Below are positions 14,829-34,437 of a stretch of DNA of 39,911 nt, piece after piece (the first letter of the stretch is position 1; the number at the start of each line of letters is the position of its first letter). The translations under genes and the position numbers were made by a program. The DNA comes from an uncultured Muribaculaceae bacterium (lineage in GTDB: Bacteria; Bacillota_I; Bacilli_A; RF39; UBA660). The DNA lies in assembly GCA_964457135.1 (NCBI GenBank), contig CAYWED010000003.1, forward strand, positions 1-39,911, read 5' to 3'. Below the pieces are notes generated by a model, which saw only the letters and a list, made by a program, of their open reading frames with translations, ran no database searches and was not told where the DNA came from.

Positions 14829-14916
14829 AAAGTTACCATAGTATATATTGGTAGCTTTTTTACACCAACAGTAAATTATATAGAATGTATCACTAGTAAA
14901 ATATTACTTATTGAAC
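14829..14916 (+). repeat. 88-bp repeat copy A (dif-like/terminator hairpin plus tail)
   Basis: 87/88 identical to the reverse complement of 34350-34437. Confidence 0.95.
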
Positions 14917-14920
14917 AATA

Positions 14921-15089
14921 ATATATAGTGTATGTGAAAATATAGATAAGAGTATGAAAGATTTAAAAAAAACGTGAATATAAATGTAAATATTGTAATA
15001 GTAAAATAGATAGAGACCAAAATGCAAGTATAAACATAATGATAGAAGAAATATTTTATTATATGAGAAACAAATTAATGTCAGTGTAA
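14921..15089 (+). pseudogene. tnpB: C-terminal remnant of IS200/IS605/IS607 TnpB
   Basis: IYSVCENIDKSMKDLKK, +1 shift in A8 at 14965-14972, then REYKCKYCNSKIDRDQNASINIM: zinc ribbon and RuvC-III DRDxNAxxNI motif. Confidence 0.85.
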
Positions 15090-15118
15090 AAGCTGATTAA
15101 AATAGATAAAAATAAAAT

Positions 15119-15222
15119 ATGTACCCTAGCGACTAGGAAATGTTAAGCCAGCGCTCGAAGGTAGGTAACGAGCTCTTAGAAGCAGGAAACCAAACTTGTA
15201 AGGTTTTGGAGTGAACCCGCAT
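15119..15222 (+). ncRNA. TnpB omegaRNA/reRNA scaffold (transposon right end)
   Basis: GC-richer island after tnpB with GTACC...GGAAA..TTAAGCC and GAAGCAGGAA; hairpins CCTAG/CTAGG, GCTCG/CGAGC, CCAAAC/GTTTTGG. Confidence 0.65.
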
Positions 15223-15483
15223 TAGCTTTAATTTACTTTTGTTCTATTGAATTAATAAACATTTATTAGGAAATTTATTAGGAAATATGCTAGGAATAAC
15301 TTTGAATATATAGTACAATGTTATTAGTAAAAATTGGAGGTATAAATGTTAGATGTAATTGAAGATAATATGATGCATTTTCTAAGCAATATAATGATTT
15401 AAATAATAACTAATCGCAAAAAGATTTAAATGAACTGTGAGTAGTATTTTGTGTATATGCAGATGATGTAAATTATTTGGAAG

Positions 15484-15514
15484 AAGTTACCATAGAATAT
15501 ATTGGTAGCTTTTT
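15484..15514 (+). repeat. Third, short copy of the dif-like/terminator hairpin
   Basis: AAGTTACCATAGAATATATTGGTAGCTTTTT, one mismatch to copy A. Confidence 0.9.
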
Positions 15515-15552
15515 CTTTTTGTCTTTGGTTAATATAATAGTGAGGTGTAGTT

Positions 15553-16527
15553 ATGAAAAAATTTATGGTGGCATTAGTCATGTGTATAATCACACCTATA
15601 AGTATGCTAGCCTATGCTGAGAATGTTATACCTGGAGGAGAAAATATAGGTATTCAAATTGAATCTAAAGGTCTAGTTGTAGTAGGTTTCTATAAAGTAG
15701 GTGGAAAGTATATAGGTAATGAAAATTTACAAGTGGGAGATACTATACTTGAAATCGAAGGAATACCAATAAGTACTATTAATGAGATGAGTCAAGTTAT
15801 TGATGAGAATATAACTAATAATGAGGTTAATATTAAAGTTATAAGGAATAATAAAGAACTTGATACAAAATTATCTTTAATTATGGAAGATAATATTTAT
15901 AAGACAGGTCTTTATGTTAAAGAGAAAGTTACTGGAATTGGTACTATAACTTATATAGACCCTATAAGTAAAATTTATGGTGCTTTAGGGCATGAAATTA
16001 TGATGAGTGAATCTCAAAATAGGGTTGAAGTAAAGAACGGTAGTATATTTACAAGTTATGTTAATGGAATAGACAGAAGTGCTAATGGTACTGTTGGTAG
16101 TAAAAATGCTACAATAACTTATAATGAAAAAATTGGTACTATTGTTAAAAATACTCCAACTGGTATATTTGGTACTTATGATGTTATTTTGCCTAGAAAA
16201 AAAACTCTTCCTGTAGCCAAATGGGATGATATTAAATTAGGTAGTGCTACAATTTACACAATAACTGAAGGTGAAAAGATAAGTGAATACGAAATAGAAA
16301 TAACAGCTTTAAATAAAAAAGTTATTGATACTAATAAATCTATTTCATTTAAGGTAACAGACAAAGATTTGTTAGAGACTAGTGGTGGTATTGTACAAGG
16401 CATGAGTGGAAGCCCAATAGTCCAAAATGGAAAGATAATAGGCGCTGTGACACATGTACTTGTTGATGATGTGACAAACGGATATGCTGTGTTTATAAGA
16501 ACCATGTTAGAAGAGGGAGAAAGATAA
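15553..16527 (+). CDS. spoIVB: SpoIVB serine peptidase (S55, PDZ)
   Basis: VIPGGENIGI, PDZ, GIGTITY..P....YGALGH, GGIVQGMSGSPIVQNGKIIGAVTHVLV. Confidence 0.95.
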   Translation: MKKFMVALVMCIITPISMLAYAENVIPGGENIGIQIESKGLVVVGFYKVGGKYIGNENLQVGDTILEIEGIPISTINEMSQVIDENITNNEVNIKVIRNNKELDTKLSLIMEDNIYKTGLYVKEKVTGIGTITYIDPISKIYGALGHEIMMSESQNRVEVKNGSIFTSYVNGIDRSANGTVGSKNATITYNEKIGTIVKNTPTGIFGTYDVILPRKKTLPVAKWDDIKLGSATIYTITEGEKISEYEIEITALNKKVIDTNKSISFKVTDKDLLETSGGIVQGMSGSPIVQNGKIIGAVTHVLVDDVTNGYAVFIRTMLEEGER

Positions 16528-16580
16528 TTCTTCTCTTTCTTTTTCTTTTGTGTTAGAATATGCTTAAAGGATGTGGTTTT

Positions 16581-18698
16581 GTGAAGAATAGAACTTTAAT
16601 AGAATTGATTAAAGATTTAAAAGGACTTGTAGATTTAAAAGATAAAGATGAAATTAAAATACTTTTATCTATTCCTAATAATGTAGTACATTTAATGTTG
16701 AATTTTAAAGATAATAATTTTAATAAAGAGATTTTATCAATTTATAGAAGTAGTAATGATTTTCTTAATGAAGATATATACGATTTTGTTTTGTCAAAGT
16801 TAAATAATACTAAAAATATGAATAAAGAAACATTAATAGCACTAATAGGGTTAATGAAAAATGAGAATTTTCAGAAATCTAGAGTATATAAAGCTGTAGT
16901 TAATTATGCTATAAAATTTAATGATGTAAGATTTATGTCTAATTTGAAATTGTTATTAGATGAACCTGTTTTGCTCAATTCACCTTATTATGATTTTGTA
17001 CTTAGCGAACTTATGAATATTAATGAACATAATTTTTATTATATTACTTTGAGAAAAATAATCTTAAATGAAAAATTAATTAATAGTGAAGTTTATACTG
17101 ATGTGATTTCTCTTTGTATGAATAAAGAAAATGAATATCTTATTGAATTACATAAAAGGATTGAAAATCCTTTGTTTAAAGAAATGATAAGACATCCATT
17201 ATTTAAAACGCTTACTACTAAATTAGATATTAGTGCATTTTATAAAGTAACAGTGATTAATGAACATAACTTAGCTTCTTCAAAGACTATGAAAAGTATA
17301 TATGCTGCTTTTAAAAGTTTTAGAGGAAAAGATACTATGGCAGGTTTTAGTTATTTAGTTTCTCCTGGACTTAATGGATTATTATCTAAAAATAAGCCAC
17401 AATATAAAGAAATAATTAATATATCTACAAGAATTAAAGATGATTATGTATTTGAATTATATAATAAAATAATTGATTATACTGATGTACTTGATAGCAA
17501 TTTATGGAAAAAAGTTTTGACTTGGGTAGCTAATGGTCAGAATGTTGAAAATATAGAATTATTTATAAATTTTCTAAAAAAGAATAATTCATTTTTTAAA
17601 AGTGTTGATAGTAGATTAATTGAAATTATTTTTGATAGTGTTGTTAGTCATGAAGACGTTGATTGGGTTGAACATTATTTAGAAGAAGTATCATCTTATG
17701 TTTATGATGGTGTTATTAATAGTGACTATAGGTATTTTAAGTTACTGCTTTCATATGTTAATAAGATTGAGGATTCGCGTATATTATATGAATATTTTGA
17801 TTTATTTTCATATGGTGAAGAACAAGGACTATATGGCAGAGTCATGAGAAATAGTTCATTTTTTAGAACTATGTTAGAAGATGCAGTTAGTATTAAATAC
17901 CCAAATAATTTTGGGGTTTATAAGAAAATTATAGAAAATGTAGATTTTCATGCTGAAGCTCAAGACGAGTTAGTTATTAGAATATCTAATATGTTTAAAA
18001 CACAGTCTTTACCTATTATGAATTCTTTCTTTAAAATTATTGATAGTAGTTTTGCTAAGGGAGAAAATTATTTTAGTATTGTGAATGCAGTTACAGAGGA
18101 AAACTTGGAGTATTTGCCATTATATAGTGATATTATTTCATATATTAGTTTTAATTTGATTTCTTTATCTAATTTAATTAATAATGTGAAAGAAATAGTT
18201 TTGCCATTATTTAAAATGACTAATAGAGAAAAATTAGAAAAAATAAAAAGATTTATTATTGATATAAGAAATAAGCAACATCATATTGATATTAAATCTT
18301 GTAAAAATAATCTTCCTGTTTTTAATGCTCAAAAGAGAGATGAGTTCTTAAATATGATTATAAATGAGAAAAATAAATATGCTTGTGAAATTTTTTATAG
18401 TTTAGATGTAAGTGGTTATAGCTTGAAATTTATTAATGAATTATGTGAAGTGTTACTAAGTGGCGTAGACAATAAAGATAGTTTAGGAAGTAGATTATCA
18501 ATGTTAGTTGATAGTGAAAAAATAAAGTTAGAATTTGAAAAGTTTAGTTTAGAATTTCTAAATAATTCTTCTAATATAGGAAATATAATTATTTCTAGAA
18601 AAGTAGAAGAAATATATTTAGAAGAATTAGGTAAACTTGAACCTCAAGAAGAAGCAACATATGAAGAATGTGTAAAAATTCTTGCTAGGATAAAGTAA
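16581..18698 (+). CDS. Hypothetical helical-repeat protein (paralog 1); likely GTG start at 16581
   Basis: N-terminus (M)KNRTLIELIK...DEIKILLSIPNN aligns with the next gene; AAAGGA upstream. Confidence 0.75.
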   Translation: MKNRTLIELIKDLKGLVDLKDKDEIKILLSIPNNVVHLMLNFKDNNFNKEILSIYRSSNDFLNEDIYDFVLSKLNNTKNMNKETLIALIGLMKNENFQKSRVYKAVVNYAIKFNDVRFMSNLKLLLDEPVLLNSPYYDFVLSELMNINEHNFYYITLRKIILNEKLINSEVYTDVISLCMNKENEYLIELHKRIENPLFKEMIRHPLFKTLTTKLDISAFYKVTVINEHNLASSKTMKSIYAAFKSFRGKDTMAGFSYLVSPGLNGLLSKNKPQYKEIINISTRIKDDYVFELYNKIIDYTDVLDSNLWKKVLTWVANGQNVENIELFINFLKKNNSFFKSVDSRLIEIIFDSVVSHEDVDWVEHYLEEVSSYVYDGVINSDYRYFKLLLSYVNKIEDSRILYEYFDLFSYGEEQGLYGRVMRNSSFFRTMLEDAVSIKYPNNFGVYKKIIENVDFHAEAQDELVIRISNMFKTQSLPIMNSFFKIIDSSFAKGENYFSIVNAVTEENLEYLPLYSDIISYISFNLISLSNLINNVKEIVLPLFKMTNREKLEKIKRFIIDIRNKQHHIDIKSCKNNLPVFNAQKRDEFLNMIINEKNKYACEIFYSLDVSGYSLKFINELCEVLLSGVDNKDSLGSRLSMLVDSEKIKLEFEKFSLEFLNNSSNIGNIIISRKVEEIYLEELGKLEPQEEATYEECVKILARIK

Positions 18699-18717
18699 AA
18701 ATTGGAGGTTTTAAAAT

Positions 18718-20694
18718 ATGAAAAATGGAATATTAATTGAATTAATAAAATTGAAACCTAGTATAATTGATTGGGAAAATCTAGATGAAGTCAACTTTCT
18801 TTTGTCTTTACCTAATAATTTATGTTCTAGAATAGTAAAAGATAGTGTAGATGAAAGAACTCAAATAATAAATTTACTTAAAAATAAAGAAGCATTTGGG
18901 CGTAAAGGAAATTATGAGTGTGTTTTAGATTGTATTAAAGCGGCAGGTAGTTATATTAACAATAAAAATATAATTGAAATATTAAAACTAGCTCAAGACA
19001 AAAATATTCAAGGAATGAAAAAAGACTTTTATAAATTAACTATTTCTATGTGTTGTTATGAAGATGTTAGAAATTTTAATTTTCTTAAGGATGTAGTAAC
19101 TCATGAATTATTTCCTAAGTATATAGATAAAAATAATACTTATAAAAGAAGCAGTTTATACTTGATGAGTTTACTAGCGTGTATGAATAGCGAACAAGCA
19201 ATTAGAATAATAACTAATCCTCATATAAAAAATATAAATGATTATAGCAGTTTAAATGTATTTATGGAATTATTAAATTATAAAACTATATATGAACTTC
19301 CAGAAGAAGATTTAGAAAAAATATTAGGGCTTTTTGATAAGAAATTAGAAATAGGTGAACATTCTCACTTAAATTCATTAGTGCATATATTAAATGATGA
19401 AAAATTTAAGAGTGATTTTAAATATAGAAGTGTTTTAAATCTTTTATCAAAAGTTTCTAAAAAAGAACAATTAAGTGCTTTTATGAATGCTACTGATTGG
19501 TTTGACTTTAGAAATTCTAAACATTACTACTTTATACTTTCACTTATAGTAAATACTCAATATGGATATGAGATTATTAATGATTTAATTAGATATTCTT
19601 ATGTTTTAAACTTAAAAGATTTTAGATGGTGTATGAGTCAAGTAGATTTTAGTAAACCTGTATTTGGTTTTTCTAAATATGCAAAATTAATTAGTTATAC
19701 AGGATTTAAATGTAAATATAATGGTGAAAAAAAGAGAAAAGAAGCAATAAAAGTTGTTTCTAAAAAACTAAATAGTGAAAAATATATTGATGAATTCATT
19801 TCATTTATTACAAATGAAAAAGTAATAGATAGTATTTATTATGAAGAATATATAAATACAGCATCTAAACTTGATTTTAGAAATATTTCTTTATATAGAT
19901 ATATAGTTGATAATATAGAAAAAGCTCATAATCATATTACACTTAGTGATGTTGAATTAATAAATAGTTTAGTATTAAAAGATATTAATAATGTGTTTAG
20001 TATAAGTTATATTTTTGATGTAGAGAAAATTACTCAAAGTGAGAGTTTTCAAAATATAATATTGACATTATTTAAAAAAACTTATCCAATTAGCAATTAT
20101 ATAGAAATTATAAATTCGCCTGTTTTAATAAATGAAGATAATTATATAGAATTAGTAAACAAAGTAATATCTATTAATGATGAAGAGTATATTAAATATA
20201 TAAGAGGACTTTCTAAAATGGAAAATCCATATAATAAATATATTTTATATGGTTTGAAAACTAAAAATGTAAATAAACTAAAAGCTTTATATGCTACTAT
20301 ATATATACATAGTAATTCTAATTCTTTAGATGATTTAGATTTTGTTGCTAATAATATTGTTAAGGATAGTCCAACACTAGCATATAAAGTGATGTATAGA
20401 TTATTTGAGTGTAATTGTTTAAAAGAAACAAAAGTTAATGCTATAATTATAGCTATACTTGCTAGAAATGTAACATCATTAAACAAATTTTGCTATTTAT
20501 TAGAAGAAACGGCTGGAGATGAGTATAAAGGGATTGTAGATAGAATCAAAATGGTTTTATTAAAAAAAGATTTGAACTATAATCAAGAACTTTCTTTAGT
20601 GCAAAATAAATATATTAGTTATTTAGAAAAGTGTAGAGCATTTGATGAAGTAGATACACAAAAATTTACAAGAATATTGAAAGTTAAGGCATAG
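18718..20694 (+). CDS. Hypothetical helical-repeat protein (paralog 2)
   Basis: RBS GGAGG; MKNGILIELIK...DEVNFLLSLPNN. Confidence 0.8.
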   Translation: MKNGILIELIKLKPSIIDWENLDEVNFLLSLPNNLCSRIVKDSVDERTQIINLLKNKEAFGRKGNYECVLDCIKAAGSYINNKNIIEILKLAQDKNIQGMKKDFYKLTISMCCYEDVRNFNFLKDVVTHELFPKYIDKNNTYKRSSLYLMSLLACMNSEQAIRIITNPHIKNINDYSSLNVFMELLNYKTIYELPEEDLEKILGLFDKKLEIGEHSHLNSLVHILNDEKFKSDFKYRSVLNLLSKVSKKEQLSAFMNATDWFDFRNSKHYYFILSLIVNTQYGYEIINDLIRYSYVLNLKDFRWCMSQVDFSKPVFGFSKYAKLISYTGFKCKYNGEKKRKEAIKVVSKKLNSEKYIDEFISFITNEKVIDSIYYEEYINTASKLDFRNISLYRYIVDNIEKAHNHITLSDVELINSLVLKDINNVFSISYIFDVEKITQSESFQNIILTLFKKTYPISNYIEIINSPVLINEDNYIELVNKVISINDEEYIKYIRGLSKMENPYNKYILYGLKTKNVNKLKALYATIYIHSNSNSLDDLDFVANNIVKDSPTLAYKVMYRLFECNCLKETKVNAIIIAILARNVTSLNKFCYLLEETAGDEYKGIVDRIKMVLLKKDLNYNQELSLVQNKYISYLEKCRAFDEVDTQKFTRILKVKA

Positions 20695-20774
20695 AAGCCT
20701 TTTTTCTTTACATAATTAGTTAATAAATCTAGAAATGACAAGTTATGTATTATATAATTAAATAGGTGGTAAGA

Positions 20775-22901
20775 ATGAATGAAGATATTATAAAAACATT
20801 AGAAAGTACTACAAATATAAGTGGAAATCAAATAAAAGCAACACTCAAATTGTTAGAAGAAGGATGTACTATTCCTTTTATTGCAAGGTATAGAAAAGAA
20901 GTAACTAACAATTTAAATGAAGAAGATATAAAGCTTATTAGTGATGAATATAAAAGAAACTTGAATTTATTTGAAAGAAAAGAAGCAATTATTAAACTAA
21001 TAGATGAAAAGGGACTTCTTACAGATGAATTAAAGAATGAAATAATGAATGCTAGTAAGATGACTGAGGTAGAAGATATTTATAGACCATTTAAAGAGAA
21101 AAAGAAAACAAAGGCTACTGAAGCAATTAAGATGGGACTTGAACCTCTTGCTAAGAAAATAATGAGTTTTCCAACTAGTGGTAATATAGAAAGTCTTGCT
21201 AGTGGATATAATATGGAAGTAGAAAAGGCAGTAGAGAATGCTGGTTATATTATAAGCGAATGGATAAGTGATAATGCTTATTATAGAAAATGGATTAGAG
21301 GATTTATATATAATACAGGTGTAATTAAGACTAAAGTTAAAAAAGATAATAAAGATGAAAATAAAACTTATGAGATGTATTATGATTTTAGTGAAAGTGT
21401 TAAGTATTTAAAACATTATAGATGTTTAGCAATTAATCGTGCTGAAAAAGAAAAAGTAATTACTGTAAGTATTGATTTTGAAGAAGAAAAAGTACAAGAA
21501 TATTTAGAAGGAAAGGTTATAAAGAATAAAGATTCTTTTGTTGTAGATATAGTAAAGAATGCAATTAAAGACGCTTTAAAGAGACTTATTATTCCTAGTA
21601 TTGAAAGAGAAATTAGAAGTGAAGTTACTGAAAGAAGTGAAGAAAAGGCAATAAAGACGTTTGGTAAAAATTTAGAGAATTTACTTTTAACTAGACCTAT
21701 AAAGGGACGAGTTGTTTTGGGCTTTGACCCAGCATTTAGAACTGGTTGTAAGCTTGCAGTAATTGATGAAAATGGAAATTTGTTAGATATTCAAGTAATA
21801 TATCCAAATGAACCTAAAAATGATGTAGTGGGCAGTACAAAAACTCTTAGAACTTTAATTGACAAATACAATATTAAACTTATTGCTATAGGTAATGGAA
21901 CTGCATCTAGAGAAAGTGAGGCTTTTGTGGCTGAAGCGATTAAAGGACTTGATGTTAAGTACATTATAGTGAGTGAAGCAGGGGCTAGTATATATTCAGC
22001 GAGTAAACTTGCAATTGAAGAGTTTCCAGATTTAACAGTAGAAAAAAGGAGCGCTATTAGTATAGGAAGAAGAGTACAAGACCCACTCTCAGAACTTGTT
22101 AAAATAGATGCTAAGAGTATTGGAGTTGGAGAATATCAGTATGATGTTAATCAAAAGAATTTAGGAGAAGAATTAGATTATTCAGTAATGAATATAGTTA
22201 ATAAAGTTGGAGTTAATATCAATACTGCATCTAGAAGTATTTTGAAGTATATAAGTGGTATGAATAAAAAAGCAATTGATGCTATTATGGACTATAAGAG
22301 TAAAGGTATTTTTAACAGTAGAGAGAGTTTACTTAGTGTTAAAGGAATTACAGATAAAATCTATGAACAAGCAATAGGATTTTTAAGAGTACCAAATAGT
22401 GAGAATCCACTTGATAATACTGGGGTACACCCTGAAAACTACAAGGACGCATATACTATTTTAGAGTATTTAGGACTTAATATTAAAGATATTAGAGAAG
22501 ATAATTTTAAAGAAAAATTGGAAAATGTTAGTGTAGATAAAATAAGTAGTGATACAGGAATAAATATATATGTAGTAGAGTCTATAATAAAAGAGTTAAA
22601 AAATCCCGGGCTTGACCCAAGAGACGAGTTAGAGATGCCAATACTTAAGAGTGACATATTAAAAATAGAAGATTTAAGTGTTGGTATGAGTTTAGAAGGT
22701 ACAGTTAGAAATGTTGCTTCGTTTGGAGCATTTGTAGATATTGGACTACATGATGATGCACTTATTCATATTTCTAAGATGAGTAAAAGTTTTGTTAAAG
22801 ATCCAGGCGAAATTGTAAGTGTTGGGGATATAATAAAATGCTATGTAGATAAAATAGATTTAGAGAAGAAAAAAGTTAATTTAAGTTTAATTAAAGGTTA
22901 A
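20775..22901 (+). CDS. tex: Tex family transcriptional accessory protein (S1 domain)
   Basis: EGCTIPFIARYRKE, LGFDPAFRTGCKLA, IGNGTASRE, SEAGASIYSAS, C-terminal S1 FGAFVDIG. Confidence 0.95.
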   Translation: MNEDIIKTLESTTNISGNQIKATLKLLEEGCTIPFIARYRKEVTNNLNEEDIKLISDEYKRNLNLFERKEAIIKLIDEKGLLTDELKNEIMNASKMTEVEDIYRPFKEKKKTKATEAIKMGLEPLAKKIMSFPTSGNIESLASGYNMEVEKAVENAGYIISEWISDNAYYRKWIRGFIYNTGVIKTKVKKDNKDENKTYEMYYDFSESVKYLKHYRCLAINRAEKEKVITVSIDFEEEKVQEYLEGKVIKNKDSFVVDIVKNAIKDALKRLIIPSIEREIRSEVTERSEEKAIKTFGKNLENLLLTRPIKGRVVLGFDPAFRTGCKLAVIDENGNLLDIQVIYPNEPKNDVVGSTKTLRTLIDKYNIKLIAIGNGTASRESEAFVAEAIKGLDVKYIIVSEAGASIYSASKLAIEEFPDLTVEKRSAISIGRRVQDPLSELVKIDAKSIGVGEYQYDVNQKNLGEELDYSVMNIVNKVGVNINTASRSILKYISGMNKKAIDAIMDYKSKGIFNSRESLLSVKGITDKIYEQAIGFLRVPNSENPLDNTGVHPENYKDAYTILEYLGLNIKDIREDNFKEKLENVSVDKISSDTGINIYVVESIIKELKNPGLDPRDELEMPILKSDILKIEDLSVGMSLEGTVRNVASFGAFVDIGLHDDALIHISKMSKSFVKDPGEIVSVGDIIKCYVDKIDLEKKKVNLSLIKG

Positions 22902-22911
22902 GGTGTATATA

Positions 22912-25667: not shown

Positions 25668-26357
25668 ATGGAAGAATTAGAAAATAAAGAATTATGTAAA
25701 ACTTGTGGGAGATGTTGTAAAAAGTCAGGATGTGACTATTATGTTGAAGATTTTGAAAATTTTAAAATAAATTATTTAGAAAAGAAACTTAGAGAAGGTA
25801 ATATTTCTATAGTTGCTGCTCTACATTTTAGTATAGTTAATGGAAAAACTGTACGTAAGCCTTTTTTGTATTTAAGAGCAAGGAATAAGCATCGTGATGT
25901 TGTGGATTTACTATCTTTGAAAACTACTTGTGCTTCTTTGACTGAAACAGGGTGTTCTTATGATTTTGAACATAGACCTAGTGGAGGAAAGTATTTAGTT
26001 CCTAGAAAGAATGGGGAGTGTATTTCATGTGTTGATATGCAAGCAAAAATTTTAGAATATATGCCTTACCAAGATGTTCTAGCAAAATTGGTTAAGAGAT
26101 TTACTAATAAAACAGTTATGGAAAATTTAAGATTTGATGTTATTTCTTTATTTTATGATATTGCTAATAATAATTTTGAAGATGTAAGTAAAGAGGAAAT
26201 ACAAGAAGTTAAAGAGGGGCTCCTACCACTTATTAGTGCTTTTCCAGTAGAAGCAAGCATTGCTAAAAAGATAATAAGTGGTAATATAGGTAATGAGAAC
26301 GTATTAGCATATAAACCAAACACTAGGGGGAATAATAATGGAAGAATTAGAAAATAA
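25668..26357 (+). CDS. YkgJ-like cysteine-cluster (Zn/Fe-chelating) protein, paralog 1
   Basis: CKTCGRCC, CASLTETGCSYDFEHRP; RBS GGGGG; ATG at 25668. Confidence 0.7.
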   Translation: MEELENKELCKTCGRCCKKSGCDYYVEDFENFKINYLEKKLREGNISIVAALHFSIVNGKTVRKPFLYLRARNKHRDVVDLLSLKTTCASLTETGCSYDFEHRPSGGKYLVPRKNGECISCVDMQAKILEYMPYQDVLAKLVKRFTNKTVMENLRFDVISLFYDIANNNFEDVSKEEIQEVKEGLLPLISAFPVEASIAKKIISGNIGNENVLAYKPNTRGNNNGRIRK

Positions 26358-27021
26358 GGAATTATGTAAAAGTTGTGGTGGAAAATGTTGTAAGGCTGGA
26401 GGATGTCTTTGGTTTCCAAGTGATTTTAAAACTATTACATTAGATAGTATAGATGAATTACTAAAAGATGGTAGTTCTATGATTGTTGGCACTCCAAATG
26501 TAGTAGAAAATAGAGGAAAGTTTAGTATTGTTGGAGTATCTTTATCTTTAAGAGCAAGAAATGTTGGAAAAGGTCCAATTGATTTAATATCACTTCCAAC
26601 ACAGTGTGCGTCTTTAACTGAAGCAGGTTGTAAGTTTGATTTTGAGCATAGACCTAGTGGAGGAAAACATTATATACCTTATAAAGATGAGAATGGTGAG
26701 TTAAAATGCCACGAAGATTTTGAAGTTAGAGATATTGAAAAAGAATGGTATGTTCATAATAAAATATTATCTAGATTAGTTAAAAGATATACTGGTTTAT
26801 CTCCTATGGAAGAGTATCGTAAAGAAGTTATAGAGTACCTTTATACATGGCTTACTATGAGTGAAAAAGAAAGAATGAAACCTCTTATAGAAGATTATCA
26901 AGTGGTTACGGATATGCTAGTAGAATTATTCCCTGAAGAGGTGAATGAGTGTTATAAAAGATTGGATGACAGTTCAATTAGAAATTTAAAATATGTAAGA
27001 AAACACAATTTTTATATATGA
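26338..27021 (+). CDS. YkgJ-like cysteine-cluster protein, paralog 2
   Basis: CKSCGGKCC, CASLTEAGCKFDFEHRPSGGK; identical MEELENKELCK start. Confidence 0.7.
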   Translation: MEELENKELCKSCGGKCCKAGGCLWFPSDFKTITLDSIDELLKDGSSMIVGTPNVVENRGKFSIVGVSLSLRARNVGKGPIDLISLPTQCASLTEAGCKFDFEHRPSGGKHYIPYKDENGELKCHEDFEVRDIEKEWYVHNKILSRLVKRYTGLSPMEEYRKEVIEYLYTWLTMSEKERMKPLIEDYQVVTDMLVELFPEEVNECYKRLDDSSIRNLKYVRKHNFYI

Positions 27022-27068
27022 TAATATTTTTGTTTTAAATGTTTGTTTTAATTAAGTAGGTGATTTAA

Positions 27069-28082
27069 ATGGGAATAATTGATAATGTAATAGATACAGT
27101 TTCTGATGCATTAAGATTTAAAGATACAATTTTTTATAAGGAAAGCAATGATTTACAATATAAATATAATGCTTTGAAAAAGTTAAATGATGAGTATCCT
27201 AATAATGATAATTTAAAGGAAGAACTATATATTGTAAAAAAAGGATTGGATGGAGAAAATGAAATATCTTATCAATTAAAAAAAGCTCATATTGGTATGT
27301 ATATATTAAGAGATATTAAAGTTAAGTATGGAGATTTAACTGCACAAATTGACTATATTATTATTACGCCTGTTTATATATATTATGTGGAGTGTAAGAA
27401 CTTAGTTGGAAATATAACTGTCACAGATAAAGGTGATTTTATAAGAAAATTTGATATTAATGGTAAAAAAGTAAAAAAGGGAATGTATTCACCATTAAGA
27501 CAAGTGGAGGCACAAAGAGAAGTTATTAGAAAAATATGGGAAAGTAAAGCATCAAAAATTAAAAAGTTTTTTGCTTCAAAGCATTTTGAGTATTATCGAA
27601 GAGTTTTAGTAGTAGTTGCGAATCAAGATACTATTCTTAATACAAGTCGAGCTCCTAAAGAAATAAAATATAAAGTATTAAAATCAGATGCATTAATTCG
27701 GCAAATAGAATATGATATAAAACATAGAAGTGACGATGAATGTTTTAATTCGAAAAAAAATATGGAAGAGTTAGCACAAACATACATTAATATTTCAGTT
27801 AATGATAATACAGATTATTATGAATTTTATAAAAGTAAATTTTGTATTAATTCTAACATTACTAACAATAGTTTAAAAAATAGGTTAATAGAGTTAGGAA
27901 AGAATAGGTCCAATCAAATGAAAATTCCTGCATATTATGTTTTTACTAATGCAGAGCTTGATAAATTAATTGAAATTAGGCCTAAGACAATTGATGAACT
28001 TAGCAATATATTAAATTCTGTGAAAGTAAAAACTCATGGTGAACAAATAATTGCTGAAATAAATAAAAATGATCATAATTAA
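27069..28082 (+). CDS. NERD nuclease plus HRDC domain protein
   Basis: G.DGE, AQIDYIII, VECKN, SPLRQ; C-terminal IPAYYVFTNAEL..L...RPKT..EL HRDC. Confidence 0.85.
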   Translation: MGIIDNVIDTVSDALRFKDTIFYKESNDLQYKYNALKKLNDEYPNNDNLKEELYIVKKGLDGENEISYQLKKAHIGMYILRDIKVKYGDLTAQIDYIIITPVYIYYVECKNLVGNITVTDKGDFIRKFDINGKKVKKGMYSPLRQVEAQREVIRKIWESKASKIKKFFASKHFEYYRRVLVVVANQDTILNTSRAPKEIKYKVLKSDALIRQIEYDIKHRSDDECFNSKKNMEELAQTYINISVNDNTDYYEFYKSKFCINSNITNNSLKNRLIELGKNRSNQMKIPAYYVFTNAELDKLIEIRPKTIDELSNILNSVKVKTHGEQIIAEINKNDHN

Positions 28083-28295
28083 TATTAAAAACATCCTATA
28101 AATTCTAGTGGAAAATATATGAAGTAATTTTTTAATATATGTTTTCTTGTAATAAAAAAATGATAATAGGTATATTTTGATAGTATAATATTTGATATCA
28201 TTTTCCACTTTACATTAATTTACACTTGACTTGTCAATGTAAAGTGTTGTAAAATATTTTTGTAATATAAAGTAGGAGAGGGTAGAGAAAGAAAA

Positions 28296-29105
28296 ATGAA
28301 GAATTTAAATGACTTATTACAAGAATTAGGAATATCAAAAGTAAAGTTAGCAAAATATTTAGGAGTTTCTAGACAAATGATATATAACTATCTAGAATTA
28401 GAGAGTTTAAATAAATGGCCAAAGGAGAAGAAAATATTATTATTTAAGTTATTAGATATTGAAGATGGTAGTGACGAGGCAATTAGCAATATTAAAGTAA
28501 CTGCAGAATATTTAGAAAATATAGAAACAAGATTAAATCAAAATATTAAAAATAACGAAGGAGGAGATAATTATTTTGATTTAAAAAATCTTAATAAAGA
28601 TGAGCAAACATTAGTAAATGATTTAATTTATTTAATTAAAGAAAAATTTACCGAAGAAAAAAATAAAGATACATATTATGAATTTTTATATTTGTATCAT
28701 GTTCTCCAATCAGTAGATAATATTCCGGAAATTAAGTATATGTTTGCATATTTATCTAAGACTACAGGATTTACTAATCCAATGGAATTTAAGTTTGATG
28801 AAACACCACAATTTATTTTTGAAAGTATAGTATTTACTGCTATGAATTTATATAATAATGGTGGTGCACAAAAAAGCAAATTAATAGCATCTCATGAAAG
28901 ATTTGTTAAAGAGATAGAGAATAATAAAGAAGAAGTTTTAAGTAGGACACAACAGTTAACTACAGTTAAAATACAAGCATTAAGAGAATTAGGATATAAT
29001 GAGATAAATAGTGAAAATGCTCAAGAAGTATTTAATAAGATGGGAGAAATCCAATCAAGAAAAGTTGTTATGGGAGAACGAAAAGATACTGTTAATAAAC
29101 AATAG
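28296..29105 (+). CDS. HTH (Xre-like) domain protein
   Basis: LGISKVKLAKYLGVSRQMIYNYL; palindromic operator upstream. Confidence 0.8.
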   Translation: MKNLNDLLQELGISKVKLAKYLGVSRQMIYNYLELESLNKWPKEKKILLFKLLDIEDGSDEAISNIKVTAEYLENIETRLNQNIKNNEGGDNYFDLKNLNKDEQTLVNDLIYLIKEKFTEEKNKDTYYEFLYLYHVLQSVDNIPEIKYMFAYLSKTTGFTNPMEFKFDETPQFIFESIVFTAMNLYNNGGAQKSKLIASHERFVKEIENNKEEVLSRTQQLTTVKIQALRELGYNEINSENAQEVFNKMGEIQSRKVVMGERKDTVNKQ

Positions 29106-29112
29106 AATTAAC

Positions 29113-29147
29113 TCTTTTATAGATTTTATTTTCTATAAAAGTTTTTA
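29113..29147 (+). terminator. Intrinsic terminator
   Basis: TTTTATAGA/TCTATAAAA stem followed by T run. Confidence 0.6.
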
Positions 29148-29214
29148 TTTATTTATTTAAGAGAAGAGAAGAGAAGTAGAATGATTAGAAATATTTCGTA
29201 TATTAAAGAATAGA

Positions 29215-29242
29215 ACTTAACATAATATATATTATCAGAACT
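29215..29242 (-). other. dif chromosome-dimer resolution site (XerC/XerD)
   Basis: Minus strand AGTTCTGATAA-TATATA-TTATGTTAAGT has the 11-6-11 layout and resembles Firmicutes dif (B. subtilis ACTTCCTAGAA TATATA TTATGTAAACT); intergenic between convergent genes. Confidence 0.8.
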
Positions 29243-29348
29243 TGTAAGTTTTATAAAAATATAGATAAATCCTAATACTTATAAGGCTTTATAAGATATT
29301 TTAATATATGTTTATTTATATAAGACTACTCTATTATGTTAACTTATT

Positions 29349-30101
29349 TTAAAATAATAATAGATTAATTAATACTAATATTAAACCTAATATTAATCCA
29401 ATTATGGTTTGATATTTTTTATTGTATTTATTTACTTCTGGAAGCATTTCATCTATAGCTAGAGTAATCATTATCCCTGCTACAAATATTAAAACAATAC
29501 TTATAGTTATATCACTTATAAAGTTTTTTAGTAATATATAAGCCATAATTGCGCCTAGAGGCTCAGCTAAGCCTGATATAAATGAGTAGAGTAGCCCACT
29601 ACCCCTACTTCCAGTTGCATAGTAAATAGGGACGCTTATAGAAATTCCCTCTGGTATGTTGTGTAACATTATTGCTATTCCTAGACTAATTCCCATTGCT
29701 AAGTCATTATAGGCTGTCATAAATGTTGCAATACCTTCTGGAAAGTTGTGAACCATAAGTGCAATCATACTAAGTACCCCTACCCTATATAAATTGTTGT
29801 TTTTTCCGAGTAGGGTAAGCCTATTATTTAATTTTGTAACTATTATTCTACCTAACATGAATACTGCTAGCCCTAATATTAATGTCCATGCAAATCCATA
29901 TGACTTTACAAGCACTATACAACTTTCAGGAATAAGCTCGAATACTGATAAAGATAACATTACACTTAATGAGAAACTTAATGTAAATGCTAAGAATGAT
30001 TCTTTATTTTTAAATTTTAAGAATACTACTAATCCACCTATTAATGTACTAAGTCCTGCCATAGAAGATATTAAAAGTGGTATTAAAAAATTATTGTTCA
30101 T
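29349..30101 (-). CDS. zupT: ZIP family zinc transporter
   Basis: AGLSTLIG, HNFPEG, HNIPEG, SGLAEPLGA, AGIM. Confidence 0.92.
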   Translation of the reverse strand: MNNNFLIPLLISSMAGLSTLIGGLVVFLKFKNKESFLAFTLSFSLSVMLSLSVFELIPESCIVLVKSYGFAWTLILGLAVFMLGRIIVTKLNNRLTLLGKNNNLYRVGVLSMIALMVHNFPEGIATFMTAYNDLAMGISLGIAIMLHNIPEGISISVPIYYATGSRGSGLLYSFISGLAEPLGAIMAYILLKNFISDITISIVLIFVAGIMITLAIDEMLPEVNKYNKKYQTIIGLILGLILVLINLLLF

Positions 30102-30264
30102 ATAATCACTAATTAATAGTATGTTTTTTGTAGTAAATAAATTCGTAAGACTACTCTACTCCTATTTGTTATATATTACCTGTTAATTTTTTCCACTAAA
30201 AAATATAAAAGTAGTGAATTATTAAAAACATAAGAACCATAATAATAACAGGTGGTGATTAAAA

Positions 30265-30402
30265 ATGGCTAATGCAAGAAATAATAGCAGAAATAGTGCT
30301 AAAAATTCAAGCAGAAATAGTAATACATCAAGAAATAATGCAAGAAAAAATTCTAGAAATAGTGCTAAAAACAATTCTAGAAATTCAGCAAGAAATAAAT
30401 AG
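30265..30402 (+). CDS. 45-aa basic low-complexity repeat peptide, candidate spore small basic protein
   Basis: RBS AGGTGG; MANARNNSRNSAKNSSRNSNTSRNNARKNSRNSAKNNSRNSARNK*; synonymous codon variation across repeats; SigG-like GAATT-17-CATAATA upstream; terminator downstream. Confidence 0.75.
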   Translation: MANARNNSRNSAKNSSRNSNTSRNNARKNSRNSAKNNSRNSARNK

Positions 30403-30413
30403 TAATTATAAGG

Positions 30414-30446
30414 AAAGAGAGACGGCTTTGATTGTCTCTCTTTTAT
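30414..30446. terminator. Bidirectional terminator between the repeat peptide gene and deoB
   Basis: AAAGAGAGAC...GTCTCTCTTT inverted repeat. Confidence 0.75.
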
Positions 30447-31600
30447 TTTAATATATCCATATAACTTTTACCAATATTAAGTTTATTTTCAATACCAAAG
30501 TTATCTATGATAGTAGCGCCTATATCAGCAAATGTGTGTCTTATAGGTAATTTTCCATAATATTTAAACATTCTTGAATAGAATATTACTGGTACATTTT
30601 CTCTAGTGTGGTCAGTTCCCTTAAATGTTGGGTCGTTTCCGTGGTCTGCTGTAAATATTACTAAGTCGTCATCTCTTAATTTATTAATGAATATTGGTAA
30701 ATAATGGTCTAGTTCTTCTAGACATTTTAAATATCCATCTTTATTTCTTCTGTGTCCATATTGTGAGTCAAAATCATTTAAATTAAGGAAACATAGACCA
30801 TTAAAATCACCTCTAGCAAAGTCTATTAGTTTCATAAGACCATCTATATTATTAGTTGTTTTAATTCCAGTTGTTATACTTTTATCAGCAAATATATCTT
30901 TTATTTTTCCTAGGGCTATTACATCTAAGCCTTGGTTATAAATTAAGTCCATAAAGTTTAAAGGTGGAATTTTAGCATAATCGTGTCTTCTAGGAGTTCT
31001 TGTGAATTCTCCTGGTTTTCCTGTAAATGGACGGGCTATTACTCTACCTATGTTATAGTCTTCATTAAAAACTAATTTACTTATTTTTTCACATATATTG
31101 TATAATTCTTCTACTGGAATAATACTTTCATGAGCGGCAACTTGTAAAACTGAATCAGCACTTGTATATATAATTAATGCACCTGTTTTCATATGCATTT
31201 CTCCAAGCTCTTTTATTATTTCTGTACCTGATGCAACACAGTTTCCTATTACTTCCCTACCAGTAATTCTTTGTATTTCACTAATTAATATGATTGGGAA
31301 TCCTTCTGGATATGTTTTAAATGGTTTATCTAAAATTACTCCCATCATTTCATAGTGTCCATTTAATGTGTCTTTTGCTTTGTTAGCTGGCTCGATTATC
31401 CCATGATAACCAAGTGAAAATTTTTCATCTTTTCCTGCTATATCTAAAAGTCCTAGTTTTTTAAATACAGGCAAATGATATAGCTCGTGGTCTAGTACGT
31501 GTCCTAAAGTTGAAGCCCCAGCATCTCCATAAATTTCTGCATCTTTTGCTTCCCCTGCTCCTACGCTATCCATTACTATTAAAAATACTCTTTTAAACAT
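30443..31600 (-). CDS. deoB: Phosphopentomutase
   Basis: RVFLIVMDSVG, KDT..GH.E, YTSADSVLQVAAHE, RVIARPF, DFDSQYGHRR, TADHGNDPT..GTDHTRE. Confidence 0.97.
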   Translation of the reverse strand: MFKRVFLIVMDSVGAGEAKDAEIYGDAGASTLGHVLDHELYHLPVFKKLGLLDIAGKDEKFSLGYHGIIEPANKAKDTLNGHYEMMGVILDKPFKTYPEGFPIILISEIQRITGREVIGNCVASGTEIIKELGEMHMKTGALIIYTSADSVLQVAAHESIIPVEELYNICEKISKLVFNEDYNIGRVIARPFTGKPGEFTRTPRRHDYAKIPPLNFMDLIYNQGLDVIALGKIKDIFADKSITTGIKTTNNIDGLMKLIDFARGDFNGLCFLNLNDFDSQYGHRRNKDGYLKCLEELDHYLPIFINKLRDDDLVIFTADHGNDPTFKGTDHTRENVPVIFYSRMFKYYGKLPIRHTFADIGATIIDNFGIENKLNIGKSYMDILK

Positions 31601-31611
31601 AATATCACCTC

Positions 31612-32631
31612 TTAAAAAATTCCTGCTTCAGATAAACTTGATAAAAAGTCATCTATTTCTTCTAGTTTTGGACTTACTATAATTTTTATTTTTATTTTAT
31701 CTTCTAATTCTTGTAATAATGCTTTAGTTTCTTCATCACGGACATATATCTTTTTAGGTAGTCCTGTGTTTAAAATACGATTTACTAATAAATTCATAGA
31801 TTCAGATATATATTCTAATTCATTTTTGTATTTGTTTTTATCTATAAGTTCAGGTGGGCTCACAAAAGATAAGTTTTTAGTAACTAAATATCTTACTCTA
31901 GGATAGTAGTATCTACCATCACTTTCTTTATTTTCTATTATTCTAATTGGAATATAGTTTAAAAAGTCATACTCTAATTCTATATTTTTTTTAGGTAGTT
32001 GTTTTAATTTTTTTTCTAAATCTTTTGGTAATTCGATTGTACCTAATTCTTTTTCTGGTATCATTAATTTGTTAATTTCATTTATATATTTGTGACTTTC
32101 TTTATCATAAAATCTAGCTAATGTTTCTCCTAACATAAATTTTGGATTTACATTATTCTCTATTATTTCTTTATATAACATATAAAATTCATTTAATGTT
32201 TTTATAAGAATTCTCACTTGTTCTATATTAATTTTGCATGGCTCATATCCTTTTTCAAAGCTTTCAAAGGAAATCCAAGTACCTCTAAATTTAAGACCTA
32301 ATTCTTTAATTATTTTTCTATTTTCTGGAAGAGTATCTTCTCTACTTATAAAATCACATATTAAACAATCTTGATAATTAAGTACTGCATGAAATGGATA
32401 TTCATTATTCGCTAATTCTAAATACTTATGAATTTGTTTACCTTTATATACTGAGACAGCTTTGTGCAAACCATGTAGTCCCATTGTACAACAATAATAT
32501 ATTTCTTTAGTATCTACATCCAAATATGTTAAAATGTCTTGGTCAGATAGATACTTCCAAGGCTCTAGTTCTTGTATTTTTTTTGCAATTTCATATAATT
32601 CTAACCATAATTTTTTATCTTTTTCTTTCAT
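31612..32631 (-). CDS. Conserved hypothetical protein
   Basis: 339-aa ORF with W.ELY..A......PW and CC.MG motifs, in operon with xerD/deoB. Confidence 0.7.
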   Translation of the reverse strand: MKEKDKKLWLELYEIAKKIQELEPWKYLSDQDILTYLDVDTKEIYYCCTMGLHGLHKAVSVYKGKQIHKYLELANNEYPFHAVLNYQDCLICDFISREDTLPENRKIIKELGLKFRGTWISFESFEKGYEPCKINIEQVRILIKTLNEFYMLYKEIIENNVNPKFMLGETLARFYDKESHKYINEINKLMIPEKELGTIELPKDLEKKLKQLPKKNIELEYDFLNYIPIRIIENKESDGRYYYPRVRYLVTKNLSFVSPPELIDKNKYKNELEYISESMNLLVNRILNTGLPKKIYVRDEETKALLQELEDKIKIKIIVSPKLEEIDDFLSSLSEAGIF

Positions 32632-32634
32632 TAA

Positions 32635-33114
32635 TTATCCCTCTATTTCTAAATTATTTTCTTTACACCACTCTAATGCGATTTTTTTTAATTCTTTATC
32701 GTAAAATTTATAGTATTCATCTTCTATACCTAAATCATATAATTTATTTTTAAATAATCTATACATTCCTTTTCTATTTAAACAATTATATAGCTCTTGT
32801 TTATGATGTTCATTTTTTAATGCATCAATAAATGAGAACATAATGTCTTTATCTCTTATTTCATAATTATTTGGTAATCTTATATAATTTTCTTCTTCAT
32901 TATATAATAAATTATATACTTCTTTTAGATGTTCTTTATACCAATCAGGTTCACGATTAATAATATCTTCAAAATTTTCACTTTCTGCGTACATTATATC
33001 ATCATCACTAACATTTAATATTTCTCCACTTTTAGTATTATAATATGAAGTCATGTAATTAAATCTCATTTGTAATTCATCTATAATTTTTTCAATATTA
33101 ACTTTATTTTTCAT
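32635..33114 (-). CDS. UPF0158 family protein
   Basis: YYN..SGEI, YIRLP, IM..FI, KG.YR.FK..L, W C-terminus; ATG at 33114 right after the xerD stop. Confidence 0.75.
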   Translation of the reverse strand: MKNKVNIEKIIDELQMRFNYMTSYYNTKSGEILNVSDDDIMYAESENFEDIINREPDWYKEHLKEVYNLLYNEEENYIRLPNNYEIRDKDIMFSFIDALKNEHHKQELYNCLNRKGMYRLFKNKLYDLGIEDEYYKFYDKELKKIALEWCKENNLEIEG

Positions 33115-33115
33115 T

Positions 33116-33991
33116 TTACTCCTTTTTAGCTCTTGGATGAAAGGCATCATAATTTTCTCTTAATATGTCATTAACTACATGAGTATATATATTAGTAGTC
33201 GATATATTTTCATGGCCTAACATTTCTTGTATGCTTCTTAAGTCTGCTCCACCTTCTAATAGATGTGTTGCAAAACTGTGTCTTAATACATGAGGTGTTA
33301 ATTCTTTTTTTATACCTGTTTTTATTTTTATATTTTCAAGTATAAAGTTAAATCCATGTCTTGTTATTGGTTTACCATGATTATTTAGGAATAGTTCATT
33401 GTAATTTTGTTTTTTTAGTAAGTCATTTCTATAATTTTCTATATATATTTTTAAATAATAAGAAGCAGTTTCACCTATTGGGACTATTCTATCTTTTTTT
33501 CCTTTTCCTTTGACTCTTATTATAGCATTGTATAAGTCAACATTAGAGTATTCTAGACTTACTAATTCACTTACTCTAAGGCCAGTTGCATACATCACTT
33601 CAAGCATTGCTTTATTTCTATAATCAAATGGTGTTGTTAGAGGAAAATTAAGTAACTTTTCTACTTCTTCAATACTTAAGTATTTAGGTAAGCTCTTTTC
33701 AGTTTTCATAGCAGTTACGTTTTCTAGAGGATTTATTTCGATTAGTCCTTCTTCTAACATGAATTTATAAAATCCTTTTAAGGAAGAGATGTGTCTATTG
33801 ATGCTTTTAGGATTTAGAGATTCTCTTAAAGATATGATATATTTTACTATGTCTGACTCTTTAACACTTAATAAATCTTTAGATATAAAATTTTTAAAGT
33901 GAGTTAAATCTTGTGTGTAACTGTCTATGCTTGCATCGCCTAGTTTTTTTTCTGTTTTTAAAAATATATAATATTTGTCTAAATAATTCAT
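33116..33991 (-). CDS. xerD: Site-specific tyrosine recombinase XerD
   Basis: YATGLRVSEL, GKGKKDRIVP, TPHVLRHSFATHLLEGGADLRSIQEMLGH, TT.IYTHV, HPRA; upstream of deoB as in Bacillus ripX-drm. Confidence 0.9.
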   Translation of the reverse strand: MNYLDKYYIFLKTEKKLGDASIDSYTQDLTHFKNFISKDLLSVKESDIVKYIISLRESLNPKSINRHISSLKGFYKFMLEEGLIEINPLENVTAMKTEKSLPKYLSIEEVEKLLNFPLTTPFDYRNKAMLEVMYATGLRVSELVSLEYSNVDLYNAIIRVKGKGKKDRIVPIGETASYYLKIYIENYRNDLLKKQNYNELFLNNHGKPITRHGFNFILENIKIKTGIKKELTPHVLRHSFATHLLEGGADLRSIQEMLGHENISTTNIYTHVVNDILRENYDAFHPRAKKE

Positions 33992-34066
33992 CTATCCTCA
34001 CGAGTATAATTATCTCACAAAATAAAGGTTTCTACAATTAGTTAAGTGATTTTTGTTTGTTATCTT

Positions 34067-34227
34067 ACTTCTAAAAGTAATGGGCACTTTTAAAAATAAG
34101 TTTCCATTACTTTTAGAAAAGTTAAAAAAATTGAAAAAATCGATGAATCAAATTATCATCGATTTTTCTTTCCATTACTTTTAGACTATATTTACTAAGT
34201 TTTCTAGTGTCCATTACTTTTAGAAGT
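34067..34227. mobile_element. MITE/IS-end remnant, 161 bp
   Basis: Terminal inverted repeats ACTTCTAAAAGTAATGG(G/A)CACT (21/22 match); TCCATTACTTTTAGA at 34103, 34171 and 34210; truncates the adjacent ORF. Confidence 0.75.
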
Positions 34228-34285
34228 CACCATATATATTTTCAGTATATTCTAACTTAAATTCTATATTCTCGTTTTCTATCAT
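34220..34285 (-). pseudogene. 5' fragment of Schlafen/AlbA_2 gene
   Basis: RBS GAGGTGAGG; MIENENIEFKLEYTENIY (E.E..EFK AlbA_2 start) running into the MITE. Confidence 0.7.
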
Positions 34286-34349
34286 TTGCCTCACCTCTAT
34301 TAAATATTATACTACAATAATTTTATTTTTGTTAAATTATCGTTCAATC

Positions 34350-34437
34350 GTTCAATAAGTAATATTTTACTAGTAATACATTCTATATAATTTACTGTTG
34401 GTGTAAAAAAGCTACCAATATATACTATGGTAACTTT
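34350..34437 (-). repeat. 88-bp repeat copy B
   Basis: Reverse complement of 14829-14916 with one mismatch. Confidence 0.95.

Follow-up and report, generated by a model that had tools for sequence, protein, structure and literature searches.

A terminator-like hairpin in three copies among accessory gene remnants between xseB and spoIVB of an uncultured RF39 bacterium

The DNA analysed here, a 39,911-nt contig (C3; hereafter the window) of an uncultured bacterium of the RF39 lineage, carries three copies of a 28-nt motif among the gene remnants that adjoin xseB, the last gene of a nusB-xseA-xseB run, and the sporulation gene spoIVB. The genome to which it belongs (G000) is a 1.18-Mb assembly in 90 contigs with 26% G+C. 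An earlier note on this DNA had read the motif as a dif-like site delimiting an Xer-mobilised array of accessory gene cassettes, with the caveat that it might be just an intrinsic terminator.

The xseB-spoIVB interval and its repeats

The locus is now divided over two parts of the window; its features are given from nusB to spoIVB, in the order in which they stand once an inversion is undone.

36464 down to 34554, minus strand: nusB-xseA-xseB, with xseB as last gene; xseA and nusB assigned by Pfam
34554..34781, minus strand: xseB (PF02609, E 6e-18), 78% identical to its orthologue in G001
34463..34585, minus strand: CAP-domain remnant, C-terminal ~30 residues, abutting the xseB stop codon (PF00188, 21.9 bits, E 3.3e-4)
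34406..34436, minus strand: hairpin copy T_C (hairpin and T-tract on the xseB-sense strand; fold -10.6 kcal/mol; no plus-strand hairpin)
34347..34437, minus strand: copy C of a 91-nt repeat, consisting of T_C, 60 nt and the first TGAACGAT box upstream of AlbA (89/91 against copy A)
34220..34346, minus strand: second TGAACGAT box, promoter-like TTAACA-18-TATAAT, ribosome-binding site and first 21 codons of an AlbA_2-type gene
14150..14822, plus strand: AlbA_2-type gene, middle and C-terminal part, frameshifted near 14255 (PF13749, E 5.4e-10)
14830..14860, plus strand: hairpin copy T_A (fold -12.0 kcal/mol, z -3.24)
14829..14919, plus strand: copy A of the 91-nt repeat, consisting of T_A, 60 nt and a TGAACAAT box, with a promoter-like TTTACA-16-TAGAAT inside
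14920..15245, plus strand: 5'-truncated remnant of an IS605-family TnpB, comprising the last ~55 codons and the 3' non-coding omega-RNA/right-end stretch (PF07282, 28.5 bits)
15246..15483, plus strand: 238-nt segment with an 18-codon open reading frame (ORF; 15347-15403)
15484..15514, plus strand: hairpin copy T_B, whose right-hand context is the spoIVB leader (fold -17.0 kcal/mol, z -4.28); loop and leader nearest to those of G001
15553..16527, plus strand: spoIVB (PF05580, E 4e-68)

The 28-mer lies at 34408-34435 (plus strand), at 14831-14858 (minus strand) and, with one mismatch, at 15485-15512 (minus strand). With up to three mismatches permitted, 100 dinucleotide shuffles gave a mean of 0 matches and none of the 100 reached three; at the same tolerance the 90 contigs of the genome contain no further copy. 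Copies A and C belong to inverted 91-nt repeats (14829-14919 against 34437-34347) that are identical at 89 of 91 positions, with mismatches at 14891 and 14917 and an exact run of 62 nt in common. The earlier note had already seen a longer repeat shared by two of the copies, and what changes is its size, from 87/88 to 89/91 over 91 nt. In copy B the identity is limited to 31 nt (15484-15514). T_B retains the ancestral leader of spoIVB, and its loop is one base off that of G001; T_A and T_C have a derived loop base in common, so that copies A and C are the younger pair. The 60 nt downstream of the hairpin in copies A and C gave weak AT-rich matches only among 200 family genomes (best E 5.6e-6, 74% over 69 nt). 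Direct TGAACGAT repeats are also found upstream of full-length AlbA homologues in genomes G103 and G021, and the 91-nt repeat therefore runs from the hairpin into the first box of the AlbA regulatory region.

The DNA between xseB and spoIVB is extra relative to the closest relative, G001. The CAP remnant covers profile positions 86-117 of 117 (the last 32). The AlbA_2-type gene begins with an ATG at 34285 (translation MIENENIEFK...) behind a promoter match of 11/12 at 34335-34306, and its 5' part is cut short by a cluster of 20-mers; in three other genera it has homologues of full length (430-437 aa), which are 67-68% identical to the C-terminal part. The genome has no other trace of TnpB than this remnant, which shows 71-77% identity with the 3' ends of two G001 TnpB elements; in one of these the 384-aa TnpB is intact. 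Homology to the two elements begins exactly at 14920, directly after the last base of copy A of the 91-nt repeat (14919), and the 14919/14920 edge is a truncation junction inside tnpB. No Rfam family was found at its gathering score anywhere in the window, nor at E<=1 in 13200-15700.

Un-inverted, the interval reads xseB - CAP remnant - T - AlbA - T - TnpB remnant - T - spoIVB on one strand, T standing for a hairpin copy. This is the arrangement drawn in the earlier note, and each of its elements is borne out: the three copies are where it placed them and are absent from shuffles, each stands behind a different accessory remnant (CAP, AlbA_2-type and TnpB, confirmed by their profiles), all are direct once the inversion is undone, in agreement with both the coordinates and synteny with G001, and the segments between the repeats are accessory, being absent from G001, where xseB, hairpin and spoIVB are contiguous.

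Several kinds of mobile-element end were considered for the hairpin and rejected. As an IS200/IS605 subterminal palindrome it is misplaced, with the TnpB homology 60 nt from T_A and 239 nt from T_B, and as an IS200/IS605 end it is already present in relatives that do not have the element. It does not resemble the GC-rich hairpins of the only Y1-transposase (IS200) copy in the genome, on contig C36, nor has it any likeness to the end of an IS30-like element.

The hairpin in relatives and its likeness to dif

The G001 contig (75% SpoIVB identity) is collinear, with a 150-aa gene, nusB, xseA, xseB, spoIVB and Tex, and farther on a helix-turn-helix (HTH) gene, dif and ZIP. A few bases past its xseB stop lies AAAAGTTACCATAGAATTTATTGGTAGC with a T-tract, and this hairpin is contained in an xseB-to-spoIVB spacer of 75 nt. 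We counted the hairpin genome-wide, as a pattern of stems and T-tract, in a genus set of 11 genomes (G000 and ten relatives). Seven of the ten relatives have a single copy, each just upstream of spoIVB, and three copies occur in G000 only. The three relatives with no match to the pattern are G009, where the 3' stem is mutated, G006, where spoIVB is inverted and has another hairpin, and G002, whose contig ends ~90 nt upstream of spoIVB, short of xseB. The stem-to-stem distance is 9 nt in G003, 10 nt in G000, G001, G005 and G010, 11 nt in G007 and 12 nt in G004 and G008. A loop or core of free length had been named beforehand in the earlier note as speaking against Xer sites, and it is what the orthologues display (9-12 nt). 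Given the single orthologous copy, the conserved stems and the varying loop length, the hairpin appears to be a vertically inherited, single-copy terminator in the genus.

As xseB-sense RNA the unit has a stem of 10-14 pairs, including a U.G wobble, a 10-nt loop and a U-tract. The three folds listed above are on the T-tract strand, with 5-8 T behind the stem; when the 31-nt unit is folded from the opposite strand the hairpin does not form, since one stem position is a U.G wobble. When 12 hairpins are aligned, pairing extends to 94.7% of cells, U.G is found in 10 of 12, and one pair is changed from G-C to A-U in four; as this covariation is probably a single event, it lends modest support to a terminator. 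A stable sense-strand stem-loop with a U-tract behind a gene, orthologous in position and preserved in its stem pairing, would be expected to terminate transcription. The caveat in the earlier note, that the motif may be just a terminator, thus proves to be the part that describes it correctly, in view of the orthologous hairpin, the sense-strand fold and the variable loop. With a probability of roughly 70%, we read the 28-mer as the core of the Rho-independent terminator of nusB-xseA-xseB, triplicated in a decayed insertion hotspot and split by an inversion that spans the replication terminus.

Two further features of the window bear on the comparison with Xer sites.

29215..29242, plus strand: chromosomal dif, ACTTAACATAATATATATTATCAGAACT, one copy in 11/11 genomes of the genus set, with 0-2 mismatches
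33116..33991, minus strand: xerD (TIGR02225, 337.8 bits against a cut-off of 329.6)

The available text of PMC3025954 gives as criteria for predicting dif that there is one site per chromosome, that it lies near the GC-skew shift and that it is conserved in relatives. The site at 29215-29242 is unique in G000, the GC skew changes sign at 29-30 kb and gene orientation converges there, and on these signs it is the true chromosomal dif. Arm by arm, by hand count in the best orientation, the motif matches this dif at 8/11, 6/6 (the TATATA centre) and 5/11 positions, or 19/28. The 8/11 arm is the ACTTAACATAA half and the 5/11 arm the TTATCAGAACT half. The counts given earlier in support of an 11-6-11 dif layout are thus reproduced; the arm with 5/11 is, however, that of the XerD half, and the total is at background. 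When dif was scanned over both strands of the genome, 131 sites matched at 19/28, 34 at 20, 3 at 21 and 1 at 22; since these 169 other positions match dif equally well or better, the dif likeness of the motif is at chance level in an AT-rich genome.

According to the available portion of PMC5357621, RipX, the XerD homologue of B. subtilis, prefers the right half-site, and it is the counterpart of this right half-site, the XerD half, that is the weaker arm of the motif. In the Acinetobacter sites, as the available text of PMC6449649 describes them, conservation is higher in the XerD-binding region, and both arms have inner parts that are highly conserved and form palindromes. In the motif the outer 8 nt of each arm pair, and the inner 3 nt lie within the loop.

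We note that the best dif-like site near dif is at 27366-27393 (minus strand), where 21 of 28 positions match, 9/11 of them in the ACTTAACATAA arm, with the same TATATA centre. This site lies 1.8 kb from dif inside the NERD-HRDC gene, which is not in G001, is one of the few in the genome at such dif likeness, and is a better match to dif than the repeat motif.

The motif has not been found in other contexts. In 60 relatives, at up to three mismatches, the 28-mer has one match only, at the orthologous site of G001. Searched with a free 6-nt centre, the arms matched the G001 contig and one unrelated sequence in the genome_contigs collection and nothing in the metagenome_contigs collection, and a looser stem pattern returned 19 stretches, all of them unrelated and none of them adjoining xseB or spoIVB. 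No second locus was found in G000, the 60 relatives or the collections.

In the reading of the earlier note, the 28-mer is a secondary dif-like site at which the host XerC and XerD integrate and excise cassettes. This agrees with the 11-6-11 layout, the dif-like TATATA centre and the one arm at 8/11; with the xerD gene ~400 nt from copy C and a second such gene, for a XerC-like recombinase, on contig C12; with a different accessory remnant ahead of each copy; and with the fact that both differences of G001 and the single difference of copy B fall within the central six bases. What the motif does not have is what marks Xer sites, namely a fixed 6-bp centre, inner-arm palindromes with likeness in the XerD arm, and presence in several contexts or replicons. 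The match of 19/28, with 5/11 in the XerD-half arm, is background; dyad symmetry resides in the outer 8 nt of the arms, against the inner palindromes of the sites in the available part of PMC6449649; orthologous hairpins shift the spacing by -1 to +2 nt; pairing is strand-specific through the U.G wobble, which is a property of RNA; xerD is a housekeeping gene; and a single locus has the motif among all loci and genomes searched. Elements of the IMEX type (integrative mobile elements exploiting Xer) integrate at dif itself, whereas the real dif here is 5-14 kb off and has no duplicate adjoining it.

Origin of the copies and the inversion

On the terminator reading, the hairpin would insulate spoIVB, downstream, from nusB-xseA-xseB, and foreign DNA would have entered the ~75-nt spacer between xseB and spoIVB. 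The inserts would comprise genes for a CAP-domain protein and for an AlbA_2-type regulator, the latter under its own promoter, along with a TnpB element and a further piece; the terminator would end up threefold, one copy behind each inserted piece, and the inserts would then have decayed. A later, dif-spanning inversion would have parted one copy and xseB from the other two. The data show which terminator this is and that it has orthologues, that it has no special likeness to dif, that the inserts are accessory and decayed, and that the locus is rearranged relative to relatives. We infer that the copies arose by ordinary recombination and not through a dedicated site-specific system, candidate routes being unequal crossing-over, tandem duplication followed by deletion, and Campbell-type homologous integration at the terminator; the unequal repeat lengths (31 against 91 nt) fit such an ad hoc duplication.

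The breakpoints of the inversion are occupied by mobile DNA.

13516..14149, plus strand: 5' part of an IS30-like (HTH_38) transposase element at the left breakpoint (PF13936)
34069..34225, no strand assigned: four 20-mer units (TTCTAAAAGTAATGGAAACT-like) at the right breakpoint, with further copies at or close to five contig ends (C11, C52, C62, C88 and C28)

The IS30-like fragment matches C2:15658-16205 with 99% identity over 551 nt, and the ORF of that C2 copy is intact (443 aa). Both breakpoints (14149/14150 and ~34225) lie within the AlbA gene, and a flip of 14150-34225 reunites its start with its distal part, ~200 codons being missing. An inversion around dif appears to have split the array, and because it spans dif the GC skew is clean in either orientation. 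Clusters of the TTCTAAAAGTAATGGAAACT-like 20-mers occur in both orientations and mostly at contig ends, and are probably the end of a multicopy, unassembled transposon-like element.

Rearrangement here is not peculiar to this genome. We compared 38 loci around spoIVB, drawn from 28 genera of the family and nine genus relatives; both genes are present in 29 of these and xseB is absent from nine. The two are codirectional neighbours in 24 of the 29 and have opposite orientations in five, so that rearrangement has recurred at the xseB|spoIVB junction within the family. In loci L011, L034, L037, L038 and L041, xseB and spoIVB stand 3' end to 3' end.

Several observations weigh against an origin by ordinary recombination or against parts of the account. 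In all three copies identity begins on the left at one and the same nucleotide, at the hairpin foot (AAGTTACC), with unrelated sequences upstream, and random duplication would not obviously yield such a common left edge; the ancestral right context of T_B is the expected leftover of recombination at a site. In G010 a startless gene remnant of ~225 nt separates xseB from its hairpin, and a possible collapsed second hairpin is present right behind the xseB stop (post-hoc motif frequency ~6e-4 per 45 nt), which was not significant by gapped alignment (1823 and 1394 of 2000 shuffles reach the score). Elsewhere in the genome, on contig C9, a RelB-type module lies between 56-nt direct repeats that hold a terminator hairpin. 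The motif is unlisted by a simple terminator scan, as this was limited to loops of 3-8 nt and the loop here is 10 nt. Finally, the 62-nt exact run in the inverted 91-nt repeats could mislead an assembler on orientation.

The C9 module (C9:21967-22793, L113) consists of a RelB-type antitoxin gene and a frameshifted partner. Its direct repeats are 98% identical over the 56 nt, extend to ~110 nt and take in the 3' end of the upstream gene together with the terminator-like hairpin; the flanking gene is poorly conserved in the genus. A hairpin remnant behind the xseB stop of the window was also considered and rejected (a local alignment score of 21 was reached by 158/500 shuffles).

The common left edge, with the ancestral right flank of T_B, leads to the alternative that insertion was targeted to the hairpin by another mechanism, the terminator being an entry point that is duplicated with each insertion, as in an integron-like array without its own integrase; candidates are a site-specific recombinase that acts in trans, a staggered cut where an extruded hairpin has its foot, and Campbell-type integration of terminator-bearing circles. 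G010 may be a second, independent case, the C9 module is flanked by terminator-bearing direct repeats, and the genome encodes seven tyrosine recombinases, including a trio on contig C39 within 86-nt inverted repeats. We nevertheless regard it as unlikely. More than one clear copy occurs in just one of the 11 genus genomes, and the repeats, of 31 and 91 nt, with the longer unit entering the AlbA promoter, resemble segmental duplication. The right edge of copy A is the truncation junction, and since this lies inside tnpB it points to a deletion and not to a recombination site. Two full-length AlbA homologues whose flanks were read have no such hairpins, no repeats flank the accessory gene pair (16560-20694) that lies between spoIVB and Tex and that G001 does not have, and the hairpin is unlike the ends of the IS200 copy and the IS30-like element of this genome. 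The stronger statement, that the terminator is a genuine entry point for foreign DNA, with insertion at the hairpin foot duplicating it and with G010 and C9 as further products, seems to us more doubtful still.

An assembly artefact, in which the inversion or part of the array, the triplication excepted, is a mis-join at repeats, would fit the repeated sequence at both breakpoints and in the 91-nt repeat, and the flip of 14920-34346 restores the order from xseB to spoIVB as in G001 and leaves the skew switch clean. Because the inverted 91-nt repeats have the exact 62-nt run in common, such a flip in assembly, or a real invertible state, is possible. The triplication itself is no collapse or mis-join, as all three hairpins have unique, differing flanks on both sides; the AlbA breakpoints lie away from the 91-nt repeat, and opposite orientations of xseB and spoIVB in five of 29 relatives' loci show that rearrangement here is common in nature. 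Among four runs of one study, words sampled from 13000-17000 were present at 97%, 37%, 26% and 14%, the run with 97% being the probable source. We therefore hold an artefact to be very improbable.

An Xer-mobilised array, which if true would be the first chromosomal Xer-driven cassette array in a Gram-positive, is argued against by the motif's background match to dif, its spacing of 9-12 nt and its confinement to one locus, and we see next to no likelihood in it.

Other features of the window and comparison with known systems

The left part of the window contains parE, parC, ToxN and an SNF2 helicase. At 487-5564, genes that look like gyrB and gyrA are parE and parC of topoisomerase IV by NCBIfam equivalogs above cut-off, with a DUF84 NTPase gene between them, and this identity fits a position of the window near the replication terminus. 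Past T_B the order is spoIVB, two large genes, Tex, uppS, spoIIM, mnmA, two paralogues, the NERD-HRDC gene, an HTH gene and dif; the minus strand after dif carries a ZIP transporter, a phosphopentomutase-like gene, two DUF genes and xerD. To the right of xerD are the 20-mer cluster, the first 21 codons and promoter of the AlbA_2-type gene, T_C, the CAP remnant, xseB, xseA and nusB.

The two large genes between spoIVB and Tex (16560-20694) are adjacent ORFs of 712 and 658 aa, absent from G001, and this pair has no Pfam, NCBIfam or PADLOC match. The paralogues at 25653-27021 are tandem ORFs of 234 and 227 aa, where G001 has a single gene; their best-aligned 91 and 75 nt have 77% DNA identity, their N-termini are CxxC-rich, and they have no Pfam match. 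A dispersed repeat of ~170 nt is present at 13318-13480 and, inverted, at 39663-39830 (75-99% identity), with at least 10 more copies on contigs C12, C13, C16, C21, C33 (two), C42 and C52 and no Rfam match; a miniature inverted-repeat transposable element and a small RNA are candidates for it. The tyrosine recombinase genes on C39 (C39:5398-8784, L114) are three in tandem (6174-8585) within 86-nt inverted repeats of 91% identity, an arrangement that presumably resembles a recombinase-in-trio element.

The locus offers what would be a clean natural case in which every piece of DNA inserted in a core-gene spacer is followed by a copy of the operon terminator, together with a terminus-spanning inversion whose ends lie in mobile-element debris and, for a Firmicutes genus that is uncultured and has small genomes, a well-supported dif site. 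It also cautions against over-reading AT-rich palindromes as dif-like, with ~170 equally dif-like positions in a genome of 26% G+C. If the common left edges do reflect a mechanism, terminators could be under-appreciated targets of insertion.

In integron arrays with attC sites, each gene is followed by a similar imperfect palindrome in one orientation. The un-inverted array has the same gene-then-palindrome layout and single orientation, but its element is of 31 nt and is the host's own terminator; no integron integrase is encoded in the window, where the sole tyrosine recombinase, XerD, reaches 135.2 bits on TIGR02249, whose cut-off is 265. Hotspots of horizontal transfer between conserved core genes are an established concept, and here too accessory and mobile debris is confined to the spacer of two core genes that are adjacent in relatives; the difference is that a native terminator is duplicated around the inserts.

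Acinetobacter pdif modules, as the available text of PMC6449649 describes them, likewise have their accessory genes bracketed by short sites, palindromic in part, for which an 11-6-11 notation is possible. The pdif sites in that text resemble the host dif, with conserved inner palindromes and XerD arm, in contrast to the background match and outer symmetry of the motif. The first dif module described there had conserved inverted repeats at its flanks and was found in another context in another plasmid, whereas the repeats here are direct once un-inverted and are known from a single chromosomal locus of a single genome. The CTX and TLC phages, like other IMEX elements, have no integrase of their own and use the host XerCD, according to the portion of PMC5357621 that treats them, and mobilisation here would also rely on the host XerCD; IMEXs integrate at dif, whereas the dif of the window (29215) is intact and single at its distance from the repeats. 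From intrinsic terminators in general the locus differs in the presence of three near-identical copies in one locus and in a 10-nt loop that exceeds the limit of simple scanners, and it has in common with them a sense-strand stem-loop and U-tract behind the last gene, a conserved position, a compensatory stem change and a free loop.

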